A program made the translations under genes and the position numbers. A DNA stretch of 63,470 bases, the filler included, from Candidatus Omnitrophota bacterium (GTDB lineage Bacteria; Omnitrophota; Gorgyraeia; Zapsychrales; JBDRMG01), in the NCBI GenBank assembly GCA_043812495.1. It is 7 parts of 5 records of this genome, joined end to end, with 100 filler letters (N's around TTAATTAATTAA, not from the genome) between each part and the next. Parts side by side here need not be neighbours in the genome. Positions count along the whole stretch, not along the records: positions 6,195 to 28,992 come from JBDRMG010000004.1; 6 more parts are not named here. One strand, given 5' to 3'. Under the pieces are notes generated by a model that made no database searches, was not told where the DNA came from, and saw only the letters and a list, made by a program, of their open reading frames with translations. Each line of letters begins with the position of its first letter. The stretch's first letter is position 1. Positions 7,351-24,132 of this stretch are shown here, piece after piece.

Positions 7351-8431
7351 ATAGGGGACGTTGATTAAAGTATTAAAGTTATTGACAACGACAATAAATG
7401 TTGATAAGTTATTCCCATGCCAAGACAAGCTCGCTTAGATTATGCGGGAGCCCTCCATCATGTAATAGGTCGTGGCATTGATGGCCTATACATTTTTAAA
7501 TCTAAACGGTCTAAACAAGAATTCCACCAACGCTTACGATCATTGCTTAAAGAAAGCAGTCTACAGATATATGCCTGGTCGATTATGGGCAATCATTTTC
7601 ATTTGTTGCTGCAAACCGGCAAAACCAGTTTATCGGAATTTATGCGCAAACTTTTAACAGGATATGCCATTTATTACAATAAAACACAGAAAAGAAAAGG
7701 GTATGTGTTCCAAAATAGATATAAGTCAATTTTGTGTGAAAAAGATGAGTATTTATTGCCATTGATCCGCTATATTCATCTCAATCCAGTGAAAGCCAAG
7801 ATTGTCGAAATAGATCAATTAGAAAAATACCCCTGGACGAGCCATGGAGAAATTACGAAAGAAAAACCAGAAGCGTTGATTAATCGGGTGGAAGTCTTGA
7901 GCTATTTTGGCAACACAAAGAACAAGGCCAAAATATGCTATGAGAAATATGTCAAGGAGGGATTGGATCTTAAAGAGGATTATATGGGAGGAGGGTTAAT
8001 CCGCAGCCTAGGTGGCTTAAAAGAATCGTTTCGCATATCCAAAGAAGACAGGCAGACTTATGATGAGCGCATCTTAGGATCAGGGCAATTCGTTGAGCAT
8101 GTTCTCAAAGATGCCGATCAGGAGGAGCAGAGCCAACAGGTTTTTAAAGACATGAATGATCTTCTTAATCGCACGGTACGATATTATAAGGTCAAAAAAG
8201 ATGATATACTTTATTCACGTACAAAACCGGTAAGGGAAGCTCGTTGTGTGGTAATATTTTTGGCCAATCAATATCTAAAATGCAGTGCAACAAAAATCGG
8301 AAGTATTTTGAGAATGAAACAAGCGGCATCTAGTATTGCTAGAACAAAAGGACAGAAAGCAGTAGAGAAAAAAGGATTACTCAAAAGATTAACAAACTAT
8401 AAACATTAATGAATTAATCAACGTCCCCTAT
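7351..8431 (+). mobile_element. Element bounded by perfect 18-bp terminal inverted repeats, carrying a RAYT-like gene
   Basis: ataggggacgttgattaa (7351-7368) is the reverse complement of ttaatcaacgtcccctat (8414-8431). Confidence 0.85.
7417..8409 (+). CDS. RAYT-like Y1 HUH transposase with C-terminal DnaA_C-like helical domain
   Basis: MPRQAR...HHVIGRG, MGNHFHLL (HUH), G.VFQNRY, RYIHLNPVKA, YPWTSH. Confidence 0.88.
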   Translation: MPRQARLDYAGALHHVIGRGIDGLYIFKSKRSKQEFHQRLRSLLKESSLQIYAWSIMGNHFHLLLQTGKTSLSEFMRKLLTGYAIYYNKTQKRKGYVFQNRYKSILCEKDEYLLPLIRYIHLNPVKAKIVEIDQLEKYPWTSHGEITKEKPEALINRVEVLSYFGNTKNKAKICYEKYVKEGLDLKEDYMGGGLIRSLGGLKESFRISKEDRQTYDERILGSGQFVEHVLKDADQEEQSQQVFKDMNDLLNRTVRYYKVKKDDILYSRTKPVREARCVVIFLANQYLKCSATKIGSILRMKQAASSIARTKGQKAVEKKGLLKRLTNYKH

Positions 8432-13562: not shown

Positions 13563-13734
13563 GGAGAAGTGGCAGCCCGTCATTCCGTTTTCGCGGAATG
13601 ACGAGGTCTCGGCGAATTTGCATTACAAATTCGCCGGAAGTGGTAGTTCGCCCATTCAAAATTTGTAATTTTAAATGGGCGAGATCTCGCCATTTCGTCT
13701 TTTGACGAAATGGCGGAAATGCGACGGTCTCGAA
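13563..13734 (+). pseudogene. tRNA-Ser 5' half (anticodon CGA) split by two double-hairpin insertions
   Basis: 13563-13575 + 13639-13646 + 13718-13734 join to GGAGAAGTGGCAGAGTGGTAGAATGCGACGGTCTCGAA, 35/38 identical to 13781-13818. Confidence 0.85.
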
Positions 13735-13780
13735 CCCCGCACCAATTCTTGTTATTTGATTTTTATGCAATAAGAAGTTT

Positions 13781-13869
13781 GGAGAAGTGGCAGAGTGGTT
13801 GAATGCGGCGGTCTTGAAAACCGTTAGGGGCCGTGAGGTTCCTCGAGGGTTCGAATCCTTCCTTCTCCG
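13781..13869 (+). tRNA. tRNA-Ser(UGA), no encoded CCA
   Basis: GGAGAAG/CTTCTCC acceptor stem, CT-TGA-AA loop, long variable arm, GTTCGAATC T-loop, G discriminator. Confidence 0.95.
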
Positions 13870-13994
13870 TTCTTCTTCGCTCAAACACTTTCATGTTTGA
13901 GCTTCGAAGCAACGTCATCCTTTTAAAAGAGCGGAGAAGAACGTTTCTGCGAAGCGCATACCATATTTTAGTATTAAAGCGCGAAGCAGAACGC
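13868..13994. mobile_element. Cargo-less tRNA 3'-end CGAAG element
   Basis: IR 13868-13882 / 13929-13943 (14/15), then a hairpin at 13945-13994 nearly identical to 24082-24132. Confidence 0.75.
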
Positions 13995-18078: not shown

Positions 18079-18263
18079 TATTCTACTTCGCATAAGCAAC
18101 AAAAAAGATGGTATATGTCCTTCTTCGTCCGCCATTGTTTCATTGGCGGACTTCGAAGGATTCCTCCGTAGTGTTAGCGAAGGAGAACTTCGTAGAATAT
18201 TCTTGTCTGAATAATTCTCCGAAGCCTATACCATTGCTTAATATTAATAAGGCGAAGGAGAAT
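18079..18263. repeat. Cluster of nested CGAAG-family elements
   Basis: tattctac-ttcg...cttc-gtagaata 18079-18199 with nested copies; attctcc-gaag...cgaa-ggagaat 18214-18263. Confidence 0.8.
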
Positions 18264-18555: not shown

Positions 18556-19487
18556 GGGTGCTCATGATAAAATCAAAGTATGGCGCTTTGGCTCTTTTTT
18601 TATTTTGCGCAATGAGCTGCTCTGCGCAGACACGCGAAGGTATTCATAGGGAATTTGATCAAAACGGCCGATTGATATCCGAGAGCACTTATGTAAACGG
18701 AAAGCTTAACGGCCCCAAGAAAGAGTATTATCTCGACGGAACTCTCAAGAGCTTTGGGGTCTATCGCAACGAACAAATCGACGGTTGGTTTGAAAAATAT
18801 TATGAAAACGGAAATCTCAAAGGGCGATATGCCTACAAAAAGGGCAAGCAGCACGGAGCTTCTTATGAGTATTATGCAAGCGGACAGCTCGAGCGCGAAG
18901 CTCATTTTTATAAAGGAAAATCCAATGGACCCATTCGCTCTTATTATGAGAACGGTAACCCCAAAGGTGAAGCTTTCACAAGTGATGACAAATTAGAAGG
19001 CATCATTAAAGAATATTATGAAAATGGAGAAATCAAAAGCGAAACAAAAGTGCTCAACGGTATGCTCGACGGTCCGACCAAAGAATATTATGAAAACGGA
19101 AATCTCCGGCGTGAAGCGGATTTTGAGAATGACAAGGCCGAAGGGTTGATCAAGACTTACTATGAGAGCGGTCACTTAAGCGGCGAAGCTCAGAGTCACG
19201 ACAATCAACTAGATGGACTTGTCAAAGAGTATTTTGAAACAGGGCAGGTCAAAGCTATCTCTACTTTTAAAGCAGGTAAAAGAGAGGGCCCTTTCAAGGA
19301 ATTTTTTGATGACGGCCAGGTTAAAAAAGAGGCTTTCTTCAAAGAGGATAAAGTTTTGGGTCTTAGCCGCGTTTATTATGAGAATGGCTCCATCAAACTG
19401 GAGGATCATTACAAAGACGGAGAGATTGATCACCGCAAGGTTTACGATACGCAAGAGCACTTGATGACTCAGAGAAAATTTGAATGA
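18552..19487 (+). CDS. Secreted MORN-variant repeat protein (YwqK-like)
   Basis: Signal peptide and about 11 tandem 24-aa G..KEYYENG.L..E repeats. Confidence 0.88.
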   Translation: MRVLMIKSKYGALALFLFCAMSCSAQTREGIHREFDQNGRLISESTYVNGKLNGPKKEYYLDGTLKSFGVYRNEQIDGWFEKYYENGNLKGRYAYKKGKQHGASYEYYASGQLEREAHFYKGKSNGPIRSYYENGNPKGEAFTSDDKLEGIIKEYYENGEIKSETKVLNGMLDGPTKEYYENGNLRREADFENDKAEGLIKTYYESGHLSGEAQSHDNQLDGLVKEYFETGQVKAISTFKAGKREGPFKEFFDDGQVKKEAFFKEDKVLGLSRVYYENGSIKLEDHYKDGEIDHRKVYDTQEHLMTQRKFE

Positions 19488-19889: not shown

Positions 19890-19967
19890 AATAGGGAATA
19901 GGCTAAGATGAATGGAGAATGCTTGGCCGGCCCCGCCTTTGGGCGGGGCCGAGCCTTGGCAAATTTT
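19890..19967 (+). repeat. tRNA-upstream module, near-identical to 23533-23610
   Basis: aatagggaataggct.agatgaatggagaatg.ttggccggccccgcc-loop-ggcggggccgagcct.ggcaa. Confidence 0.85.
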
Positions 19968-19997: not shown

Positions 19998-20083
19998 GGA
20001 GAGGTGCGAGAGCGGTTGAATCGGGCGGTCTCGAAAACCGTTGTCCCTTCTGGGGATCCTGGGTTCGAATCCCAGCCTCTCCG
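19998..20083 (+). tRNA. tRNA-Ser(CGA), no encoded CCA
   Basis: GGAGAGG/CCTCTCC acceptor stem, CT-CGA-AA loop, variable arm, GTTCGAATC. Confidence 0.95.
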
Positions 20084-20231
20084 TTCTTCTTCGCTCCAAA
20101 ACTCCGCTTCGCTTCGTTTGGGAGCTTCGAAGAACAAGTTCTTTAATTATTTTGATTCGCGGGAGCGAAGAAGAACGGTATTCTCCGAAGCGTCCAAATG
20201 GAGTGAAGCGGAATTTTGACGCGTAGGAGAA
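20081..20231. mobile_element. tRNA 3'-end CGAAG element
   Basis: Perfect 17-bp IR 20081-20097 / 20162-20178, then a second hairpin unit at 20181-20231. Confidence 0.75.
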
Positions 20232-20243
20232 GCCGTTGGTGAT

Positions 20244-20290
20244 ATGTATGTCGTTTATATTCTACAAAGTTTGAAGGAGCCTGGCCATTG
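20244..20290 (+). pseudogene. N-terminal remnant of a GIY-YIG nuclease gene
   Basis: MYVVYILQSLKEPGH matches MYIVYILKSTKFPERH of 23820; the second (YVG) motif is absent. Confidence 0.65.
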
Positions 20291-20421
20291 CCTTATTTTT
20301 TTACTAAAGGAAGAATCTAAAAAAGGCAAGATTTTCCAGCCCTTCCAATTAATTTCTAAAATGTAGGAAATTTTCATAAAGTAAGCTATAATATTTTTGA
20401 ATATTTAATATTAATATAATT

Positions 20422-23465: not shown

Positions 23466-23645
23466 AATAACATAAGCGGGAATAACCTTGGATGTCCCTG
23501 CCTTGGGCGGGGCCGAGTCTCGGCAAATTTTTAATAGGGAATAGGCTTAGATGAATGGAGAATGTTTGGCCGGCCCCGCCCAAAGGCGGGGCCGAGCCTC
23601 GGCAATTTTTCAAGAAATATTTTAAGGCATGAGAGAAAAATTGCC

Positions 23646-23734
23646 GGAGAGGTGGCTGAGCGGTTGAAAGCGCACGCTTGGAGAGCGTGTGGCGGCCGAA
23701 AGGTTGCTCGAGAGTTCGAATCTCTCCCTCTCCG
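23646..23734 (+). tRNA. tRNA-Ser(GGA), no encoded CCA
   Basis: GGAGAGG/CCTCTCC acceptor stem, CACGC-TT-GGA-GA-GCGTG arm, variable arm, GTTCGAATC. Confidence 0.95.
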
Positions 23735-24132
23735 TTCTACTTCGCCTTTCAACAATGAAAAATATGGTAAAGGCTTCGTAGAACGAGTTATGAGAATTTA
23801 AAGACAATAGGCGTTTTATATGTATATTGTTTATATTCTCAAAAGCACAAAGTTTCCTGAACGACATTATGTTGGTATAACGCAAGATTTAGCAAGAAGG
23901 CTCAAGGAGCATAATAGCGGCGATATCGAGTATAGCAGTCGATATGCCCCGTGGGACGTTGAAACATTTGTTACCTTTCGCAATAAACGACTTGCTTGCG
24001 ACTTTGAAAAATATCTTAAGGCCGGCTCGGGACATGCTTTCCTGAAGAGGCGATTATTTAGCGAAAAGGCGAAGTAGAACGTTCTGCGAAGCGCGTACCA
24101 TCATTTAAATATTAAAGCGCGAAGCAGAACGC
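23733..24132 (+). mobile_element. tRNA 3'-end CGAAG element carrying a GIY-YIG gene
   Basis: Perfect 17-bp IR 23733-23749 / 24065-24081 brackets the gene; hairpin unit at 24082-24132. Confidence 0.8.
23820..24077 (+). CDS. Small GIY-YIG nuclease (YhbQ/UPF0213-like)
   Basis: VYIL...HYVGIT.DL.RRL.EHN.G, A..FEKYLK.GSG. Confidence 0.9.
   Translation: MYIVYILKSTKFPERHYVGITQDLARRLKEHNSGDIEYSSRYAPWDVETFVTFRNKRLACDFEKYLKAGSGHAFLKRRLFSEKAK

Follow-up and report, generated by a model that had tools for sequence, protein, structure and literature searches.

A clade of small GIY-YIG nucleases travels with paired hairpins at the 3′ ends of tRNA genes in a unit that looks like a very small mobile element

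How short palindromic repeats spread without a known transposase is an open question. In Neisseria, the 94-aa GIY-YIG protein SsnA cuts single-stranded DNA a few bases upstream of its own hairpin, and its gene is flanked by that hairpin, a layout (NTS-ssnA-NTS) which its authors call IS-like; SsnA has been shown to cut the hairpin, not to move it (PMC11893778). For prokaryotic Slx1-like proteins, vertical inheritance has been described and a role in repair predicted (PMC1564403). In the openly accessible literature we found no paper on the C[GNA]G hairpin family described here or on its GIY-YIG clade at tRNA ends (PMC5217627 concerns, in its accessible part, an unrelated motif), the word ‘tRNA’ is absent from the main text of PMC11893778, and a search of 12 of its 14 supplements gave no hit for cd10449, SLX1_like or Omnitroph.

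We analysed a 63,470-nt stretch of DNA from a Candidatus Omnitrophota bacterium (the window), which is joined from several contigs with runs of N between them. The genome (G000) measures 1.94 Mb and is 90% complete, and its contig C4 occupies positions 6195-28992 of the window. Gene order in this region is serS, tRNA-Ser(TGA), tRNA-Ser(CGA), tRNA-Ser(GGA), a conserved 178-aa gene and an M16 peptidase gene. An earlier note on this DNA had placed an element at the exact 3′ end of all three tRNA-Ser genes, and its coordinates hold (Table 1): none of the three encodes CCA, and ttct(t/a)cttcg stands immediately 3′ of each. The 17-bp inverted repeat reported around an 85-aa GIY-YIG gene is likewise present in full (23733-23749/24065-24081, 17/17 matched), with the stop codon of the open-reading frame falling within the right repeat. 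The 3×3 internal loop of hairpin A at 23733 reads C[TTC]G/C[TTC]G on the plus strand and C[GAA]G/C[GAA]G on the minus strand. Folded as single-stranded DNA, this hairpin and hairpin B at 24080 both form the 3×3 loop, with z-scores of -3.2 to -4.9 that none of 200 shuffles equalled. Similarity to the corresponding cassette of a syntenic relative (G007) runs out 2 bases past hairpin B.

Table 1 Features of the tRNA-Ser region (window coordinates)
Feature	Position	Strand	Evidence or remark
tRNA-Ser(TGA) gene	13781-13869 (13780-13870 in the ARAGORN call)	+	ARAGORN; Rfam RF00005
Gene-less copy at tRNA-Ser(TGA)	13868-13993	+	hairpin A 13868-13914, R 13929-13943, hairpin B 13942-13993
Fourth window copy, away from any tRNA	18081-18262		G000:C4:11887-12068; TA on both sides; second A-B unit nested inside
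tRNA-Ser(CGA) gene	19998-20083	+	ARAGORN; Rfam RF00005
A-R-B unit at tRNA-Ser(CGA)	20081-20231	+	hairpin A 20084-20134, R 20162-20178, hairpin B 20181-20231
Likely 5′ fragment of a GIY-YIG gene of the clade	20244-20366	+	weak; profile positions 1-22 only
tRNA-Ser(GGA) gene, host of the gene-carrying copy	23646-23734 (23645-23735 in the ARAGORN call)	+	ARAGORN; Rfam RF00005
Hairpin A (left end) of the gene-carrying copy	23733-23785	+	last two tRNA bases within stem; folding and inverted-repeat search
85-aa GIY-YIG nuclease gene	23820-24077	+	Pfam GIY-YIG E 9e-13; Slx1-like fold
R, the left arm repeated in inverted form (17 bp, perfect)	24065-24081	+	includes complement of last tRNA bases; likewise in G007
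Hairpin B (right end) of the gene-carrying copy	24080-24131	+	C[GAA]G/C[GAA]G loop on the plus strand

The other two tRNA-Ser copies share this layout, with inverted repeats of 17/17 matched positions (20081-20097/20162-20178) and 14/15 (13868-13882/13929-13943). The copy at 13868 carries no gene and has, as the note described, a hairpin B nearly identical to that at 24080 (46/51 positions). Its hairpin A is identical at 27/46 positions to that at 23733 and at 37/45 to that at 20081, and because these similarities differ between copies we regard the three as mosaics and not as a simple deletion series. In the 20081 unit, hairpin B is a 78% inverted copy of hairpin A over 51 nt. Here the perfect repeat stands, while the GIY-YIG remnant claimed behind it is weak: it starts 13 nt past hairpin B, outside the A-B unit, has no Pfam match, and scores E 0.24 genome-wide against the clade profile, where it ranks next after the 15 real genes. 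A remnant in the same place behind hairpin B was read by eye in a related locus (L041). Gene-carrying, gene-less and decayed states, which the note had proposed, are supported for the family. A different, GC-rich palindrome family lies just 5′ of each window tRNA-Ser (23496-23611, 19926-19962, 13594-13740), and also upstream of tRNA-Ser(GCT) on contig C51 of G000 and in G007.

The 85-aa protein is modelled by AlphaFold2 as a single domain (pLDDT 91). A profile search of structures returned PDB 1zg2 (E 1e-6) together with Slx1 chains, and the best Foldseek match was 6seh (E 4e-4), the nearest structures being Slx1 and a UPF0213 protein; no NCBIfam family scored above cut-off. Residues Y5, Y17, G19, R27, H31 and E63 are invariant across 39 related sequences. 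Members of its clade are about 80 aa long and have a C-terminal motif, YLKxGSGxAF. The gene is under purifying selection, with dN/dS of 0.04-0.16 in five of 13 close pairs, those with unsaturated dS. G000 encodes 15 small GIY-YIG genes and one UvrC-sized gene. The two closest paralogues of the 85-aa protein (54% and 47%) also adjoin C[GNA]G hairpins, at tmRNA and behind tRNA-Lys, and the remaining small genes adjoin other palindromes or none. The best four relatives of the 85-aa protein among genome contigs carry an Omnitrophota label, and a metagenome scan gave at least 565 relatives. Only two viral loci were seen, a plasmid search with one clade member gave no match, and an atlas search returned GIY-YIG clusters only.

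One clade of GIY-YIG proteins of about 80 aa travels with a pair of head-to-head C[GNA]G/C[GNA]G hairpins. In a quick tree of 98 small GIY-YIG proteins, from which three broken or partial rows were excluded, a strict detector found hairpin A upstream of the gene in 27 of the 39 rows of one branch (SH-aLRT 95) and in none of the other 59, a clustering on the tree that none of 500 shuffles matched in strength. With a relaxed detector, hairpin A and/or B lay upstream in 92 of 100 clade loci vs. 0/59 non-clade small GIY-YIG loci; these 100 are the loci with enough flank (19 of 119 were too short), and the metagenome loci had been chosen through peptide patterns, not through DNA. Two of the remaining clade loci exhibited a hairpin downstream only and six exhibited none. 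This strong enrichment of the clade beside the hairpins supports the note. Of the 100 genes, 44 follow both hairpins, 21 follow hairpin A alone, and only 16 are enclosed by A and B, the arrangement at 23733. In a set of 250 genomes from the phylum, whose kinship means that they are not independent, the clade gene occurred in 16 of 31 genomes with the strict hairpin pattern vs. 13 of 219 without it; 12 to 15 of the 31 pattern-bearing genomes yielded no clade gene. The distribution of the clade is patchy, with 19 of 168 genomes of the order positive at E 1e-24.

The hairpin family itself extends well beyond the window. An unbiased scan of G000 for hairpins with a 3×3 internal loop gave 306, vs. 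106 after shuffling, and 80 of these were closed by C..G on both arms. On the purine strand their loops have G first in 136/160 cases and A third in 143/160 (GAA 110, GTA 16, AAA 7, GGA 5), a pattern consistent with sheared G-A pairs on either side of an unpaired middle base. A detector for the C[GNA]G/C[GNA]G motif found 123 hairpins in 75 clusters, and a single hairpin after shuffling. The 3×3 loop is the conserved part of these hairpins; the GNA mini-hairpin (GCGNAGC, as given in the accessible part of PMC13037366) was rejected as the conserved unit, as no more than 66 of the 246 arms are able to close it and the outer pair is variable. Polarity is fixed, the pyrimidine-loop hairpin A preceding the purine-loop hairpin B 29 times and following it once. 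Only 15 of the 75 clusters are centred in long open-reading frames, although these make up 83% of the genome. Within G000, inspection by eye found the unit on the four Ser genes, Tyr, Arg(TCG), Lys(CTT), Asp and tmRNA, as well as on duplicated 3′ fragments of Val and Phe, so that Ser is preferred but not exclusive (4/4 Ser vs. about 4-5 of the other 37 calls). The suggestion that the family as a whole targets tRNA genes is not supported, with a called tRNA end adjoining only six of the 75 clusters. A second hairpin family in G000 has a tandem 2×2 GA/GA loop, T[GA]G/C[GA]A, with 37 hairpins on both strands, and a near-identical composite hairpin element occurs at contig ends (G000:C20:17, C20:47808, C32:4060, C39:9994), which suggests that it multiplied recently and broke the assembly.

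That hairpin A lies directly 3′ of transcribed tRNA genes would fit hairpins that act at the RNA level, as trailer or terminator structures of the tRNA, beside an unrelated repair nuclease gene. We find this scarcely credible: on the transcribed strand the loop is TTC/TTC for hairpin A and GAA/GAA for hairpin B, most clusters lie away from tRNAs, a search of Rfam brought nothing but tRNA to gathering score, and in G001, the closest relative of G000, the unit is missing from the three Ser genes that were located.

The arrangement of two inverted hairpins is that of a REPIN (PMC3337134), and the units could be REPINs or MITEs moved by a RAYT-like Y1 HUH or an IS630-like DDE transposase, with the GIY-YIG gene as cargo or as a hitch-hiking homing gene. 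The note's statement that no integrase or DDE transposase is present is right for the element, not for the genome: G000 has eight Y1_Tnp matches (three of them open-reading frames of 325-331 aa, one on C4) and two DDE_3 matches. TA flanks are typical of IS630/Tc1 targets, and TA stands on both sides of six of the 29 A-B clusters, the remainder exhibiting other flank pairs. Y1_Tnp genes are present in 27 of 29 pattern-positive vs. 20 of 29 pattern-negative genomes (the latter selected for lack of a strict hairpin match), which leaves room for a HUH enzyme acting in trans; they discriminate pattern-bearing genomes far less than the clade gene does. Against such a transposase, the hairpin motif is near none of the five Y1 loci examined of the eight matches and neither of the two DDE_3 loci, two pattern-positive genomes have no Y1 match, and the hairpins follow one GIY-YIG clade across phyla. 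The repeats at the element ends, of 2 to 16 bp, are moreover unsuited to one DDE enzyme, and we consider this explanation decidedly improbable. A RAYT-like Y1 HUH gene of 330 aa with its own short terminal inverted repeats does lie in the window at 7417-8409 (G000:C4:1223-2215); a close paralogue on C45 has the same terminal repeats and a paralogue on C2 has different ones.

Gene-bearing units have the final base of a tRNA or tmRNA gene as their start and have changed host many times. The set examined held 134 distinct, intact proteins of the clade. For 95 of them a tRNA or tmRNA was called within 500 nt upstream, and these hosts comprise 17 tRNA types plus tmRNA (Ser 16, tmRNA 15, Ala 12, and 15 further types), so the serine specificity first suggested by the window is not upheld. 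Placed on a tree of the 95 rows, the host label changes 56 times, with a minimum of 17 and a shuffled value of 70.3. The junction is fixed: in 78 of 87 tRNA-end elements the motif begins 5 nt (48) or 2 nt (30) past the last base of the gene, with or without an encoded CCA. CCA is missing from 18 of 29 element-bearing tRNA genes and from 91 of the 154 tRNA genes examined, so that its absence is uninformative. A downstream repeat of at least 9 bp of the tRNA end was present in 16 of the 87 elements (one being a neighbouring tRNA) and absent from 71; in 12 the repeat of the tRNA 3′ end stands directly after the hairpin-B motif, and five of these repeat exactly nt 61-76 (16 bp). The window copies exhibit no long direct repeat, with only CG or CCG behind hairpin B. 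The bases behind R are complementary to the last bases of the host over at least 2 nt in 37 of 47 cases vs. 27.3 expected (0/5000 permutations). This complementarity is mostly CA to TG (31/39), followed by CG to CG (5/7, four of the five from G000) and AG to CT (1/1). A search of the order with a short pattern for Ser ends gave chance level. In three loci (L202, L204, L205) the end of hairpin B leads straight into the ATG of a downstream conserved gene, and in another (L065:1100-2200) the whole cassette is tandemly duplicated through a repeated tRNA-Asp 3′ end, with two identical nuclease genes.

Occupancy of these sites differs between relatives. At the site before the 178-aa gene, a tRNA-Ser lies upstream in 23 of 29 relatives, and none of the 23 has an intact GIY-YIG gene in between; the gene is thus not vertically fixed there. 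L041 has a unit with its short remnant, L045 has a CCA-type variant, and many sites are empty; G001 is the only genome of the same family. Three genomes of another family (G409, G378, G410) carry an intact cassette of 60-62% identity at this Ser(GGA) site, as would be expected from either long residence or re-invasion. G007 is syntenic with G000 from serS to the M16 peptidase, yet its whole cassette (78% amino acid identity to that at 23733; hairpin A 43/52, hairpin B 42/51) stands not on tRNA-Ser(GGA) but on tRNA-Ser(TGA), whose orthologue in the window holds the gene-less copy. The Ser(GGA) gene of G007 bears instead a gene-less hairpin A, of which 42/44 bases (by eye) equal the Ser(GCT) copy of G000, with the same T-arm. 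In this swap between the two genomes, units have therefore moved between tRNA paralogues, for which transposition and gene conversion by way of the tRNA are equally open as routes. Between G000 and G007 the gene has a dS of 0.54 on 52 sites, the lowest of 16 open-reading-frame pairs, but with two others at 0.59 it is too close to them for a claim of horizontal transfer. Four read runs, in which the organism was not covered (best share 0.22), yielded scattered short contigs and tRNA cross-matches, and no usable joint that would speak for or against circles or inversion.

The T-arm shared at Ser(GGA) of G007 suggests co-conversion, as would occur if a classical free-standing homing endonuclease cut empty tRNA genes in double-stranded DNA and the hairpins were passive repair products or separate parasites; the GIY-YIG homing enzyme SegB of T-even phages is itself linked to tRNA genes (PMC13096335). 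We hold this to be very unlikely for a protein of 85 aa with no DNA-binding module, which is associated with 18 host types and a loop motif conserved across phyla, and whose insertion leaves the tRNA gene intact, so that the target is not destroyed. Alternatively, the pair may be a domesticated Ssn-like restriction system, in which the nuclease cuts hairpins in single-stranded DNA and is selected for curbing recombination with incoming DNA, tRNA flanks serve as safe, transcribed sites, and patchiness arises through loss and recombination of the usual kind. What has been demonstrated for SsnA is that it restricts transforming DNA, not that it is mobile (PMC11893778), and the purifying selection, the persistence at one site within a family and the 75 dispersed clusters all fit. 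This reading is unlikely in our judgement, as the exact gene-end junction, the 16-bp repeat of nt 61-76, the host switching and the G000/G007 swap are left unexplained by it.

On balance we think it probable that the unit is a selfish nuclease-hairpin element, in which the nuclease recognises the hairpin in single-stranded DNA and introduces a nick next to it, after which the unit is copied into tRNA ends by host repair. The data show the linkage of gene and hairpins, the junction, the repeats, selection on the gene and relocation; binding, cutting and a causal role of the nuclease in movement are inferred here by analogy with SsnA and its NTS. The protein would bind its own hairpin where DNA is single-stranded, at replication forks or in incoming transforming DNA, and its nick would fall at the junction with the tRNA, a few bases beyond the stem. 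As the nuclease is expected to have no joining activity of its own, host recombination and repair would then copy the unit in, with the conserved 3′ half of the tRNA as homologous anchor, and insertion would leave, past hairpin B, a repeat that is either 2-3 bp long or covers tRNA nt 61-76. The copy at 23733 would be the autonomous form, and those at 13868, 20081 and 18081, with the other copies in the genome, may be mobilised in trans or may be leftovers; gene-bearing units do leave gene-less copies. Insertion of the unit by tRNA-primed retro-insertion is unsupported, because no reverse transcriptase was found in the 90% complete G000.

A guide in IS200/IS605 elements selects the target through base pairing, and a more far-reaching proposal, which we regard as possible but tentative, is a transposable-element class with the 80-aa GIY-YIG hydrolase as its sole enzyme. 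Single-stranded DNA would be excised or copied between the hairpin feet and would enter tRNA 3′ ends with duplication of nt 61-76, the target being chosen partly by base pairing of the 2-4 bases behind the inner repeat with the last bases of the host tRNA; the further small GIY-YIG clades that G000 has next to different palindromes at tRNA genes would be parallel systems. Palindrome self-correction after insertion would be an alternative source of the complementarity at the end of R.

Several such arrangements occur in G000. Another GIY-YIG clade, with palindromes of a different kind, is flanked by duplicated tRNA 3′ ends, those of tRNA-Leu(TAA) or tRNA-Val(CAC) (G000:C50:16000-16661, C54:29-114, C29:12600-13450), and the Leu unit seems to be tandemly repeated at contig ends. 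GIY-YIG genes also lie upstream of intact tRNA genes (G000:C18:44407-44800, C36:352-820, C66:14500-15040, C51:7900-8400, C62:23400-23640), with a broken 5′ tRNA copy that carries a palindrome in its D- or T-loop 5′ of each. A gene of a further clade sits upstream of tRNA-Ser(GCT) in the same place in G007 (C10, L222, about 18657-18924, reverse strand) and G000 (C51:2917-3129); the two share 52% amino acid identity with saturated dS, and unlike the 23820 gene they have kept their position.

The clade described here constitutes a second, independent nuclease-hairpin pair, with a fixed tRNA 3′-end junction, a defined loop motif, a direct repeat and natural relocation. If the protein cuts as predicted, it would be an 85-aa single-strand nuclease of new specificity, and if it is also mobilising, the unit would be one of the smallest autonomous mobile elements and would account for the many genes annotated ‘GIY-YIG family’ beside tRNA genes.

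Compared with known systems, the unit shares features with several. Tyrosine-integrase islands at tRNA 3′ ends leave the host tRNA intact and repeat its 3′ end at the far boundary. The present family also leaves the tRNA intact, and some copies repeat its 3′ end at the far boundary, but the unit is 0.4 kb long with no integrase inside and is thus not bounded as an att-flanked integrase island; G000 has only two integrase-family genes, of about 300 aa. An IS630/Tc1 MITE is also ill-fitting, the motif being absent around both DDE_3 loci and the TA flanks not constant. With REP/REPIN sequences and their RAYTs the family shares an inverted hairpin pair of fixed polarity (29 A-B vs. 1 B-A), many mostly intergenic copies, nested composites and an enzyme gene beside the repeats (PMC3337134, PMC3733652); it differs in having a GIY-YIG hydrolase in place of a Y1 HUH enzyme, in lacking the GTAG/CGTC foot and in its tRNA-end location, and no Y1 HUH gene flanked by the same hairpins was seen at the five loci examined. 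SegB-type homing likewise involves a GIY-YIG gene beside tRNA genes that spreads by host recombination (PMC13096335), whereas the present family lacks the C-terminal DNA-binding module, is chromosomal, and has hairpin ends and gene-less derivatives. Prokaryotic Slx1-like/UPF0213 proteins share the minimal fold and provide the best sequence and structure matches (PDB 1zg2, 6seh), so that the protein belongs with them by fold, but the present clade is patchy, multi-copy and repeat-linked.

SsnA with its NTS (dRS3) repeats is the closest described system and is usable as a model. Both have single-domain GIY-YIG proteins of 80-95 aa with a Tyr-Tyr-Glu catalytic set, their own hairpin repeat flanking the gene, and many repeat copies (PMC11893778), and the window protein is indeed a small, single-domain GIY-YIG protein with intact catalytic residues and flanking hairpin repeats. 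A Neisseria orthologue (L223; 94 aa, Y6/Y17/E64), flanked by six SRM and 11 dRS3 repeats, matched the 85-aa protein at E 0.15 and the best clade member at 5e-6 by BLAST, short of the E < 1e-10 taken as the mark of Ssn membership, and the two clades occupy separate branches (100/99 and 98/97), although grouping them as sisters is not rejected (AU p 0.14); membership of Ssn thus appears to fail. The degenerate SRM motif was found in 0/40 clade loci and at none of the three window loci, in a search that detects the Neisseria locus but misses three Omnitrophota loci on the Ssn branch and L224. G000 does have a true Ssn member (G000:C64:52802-53020), which matches the Neisseria orthologue at E 2e-20 and has on its flanks two inverted palindromes that do not fit the SRM pattern. 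The window family differs from Ssn in its 3×3 G..A loop and head-to-head hairpin pairs, and in gene-bearing copies at tRNA/tmRNA 3′ ends, some with a direct tRNA-end repeat. It is best described as a system of the small GIY-YIG plus hairpin kind with a predicted enzyme function, found here with a tRNA-end location and natural relocation.
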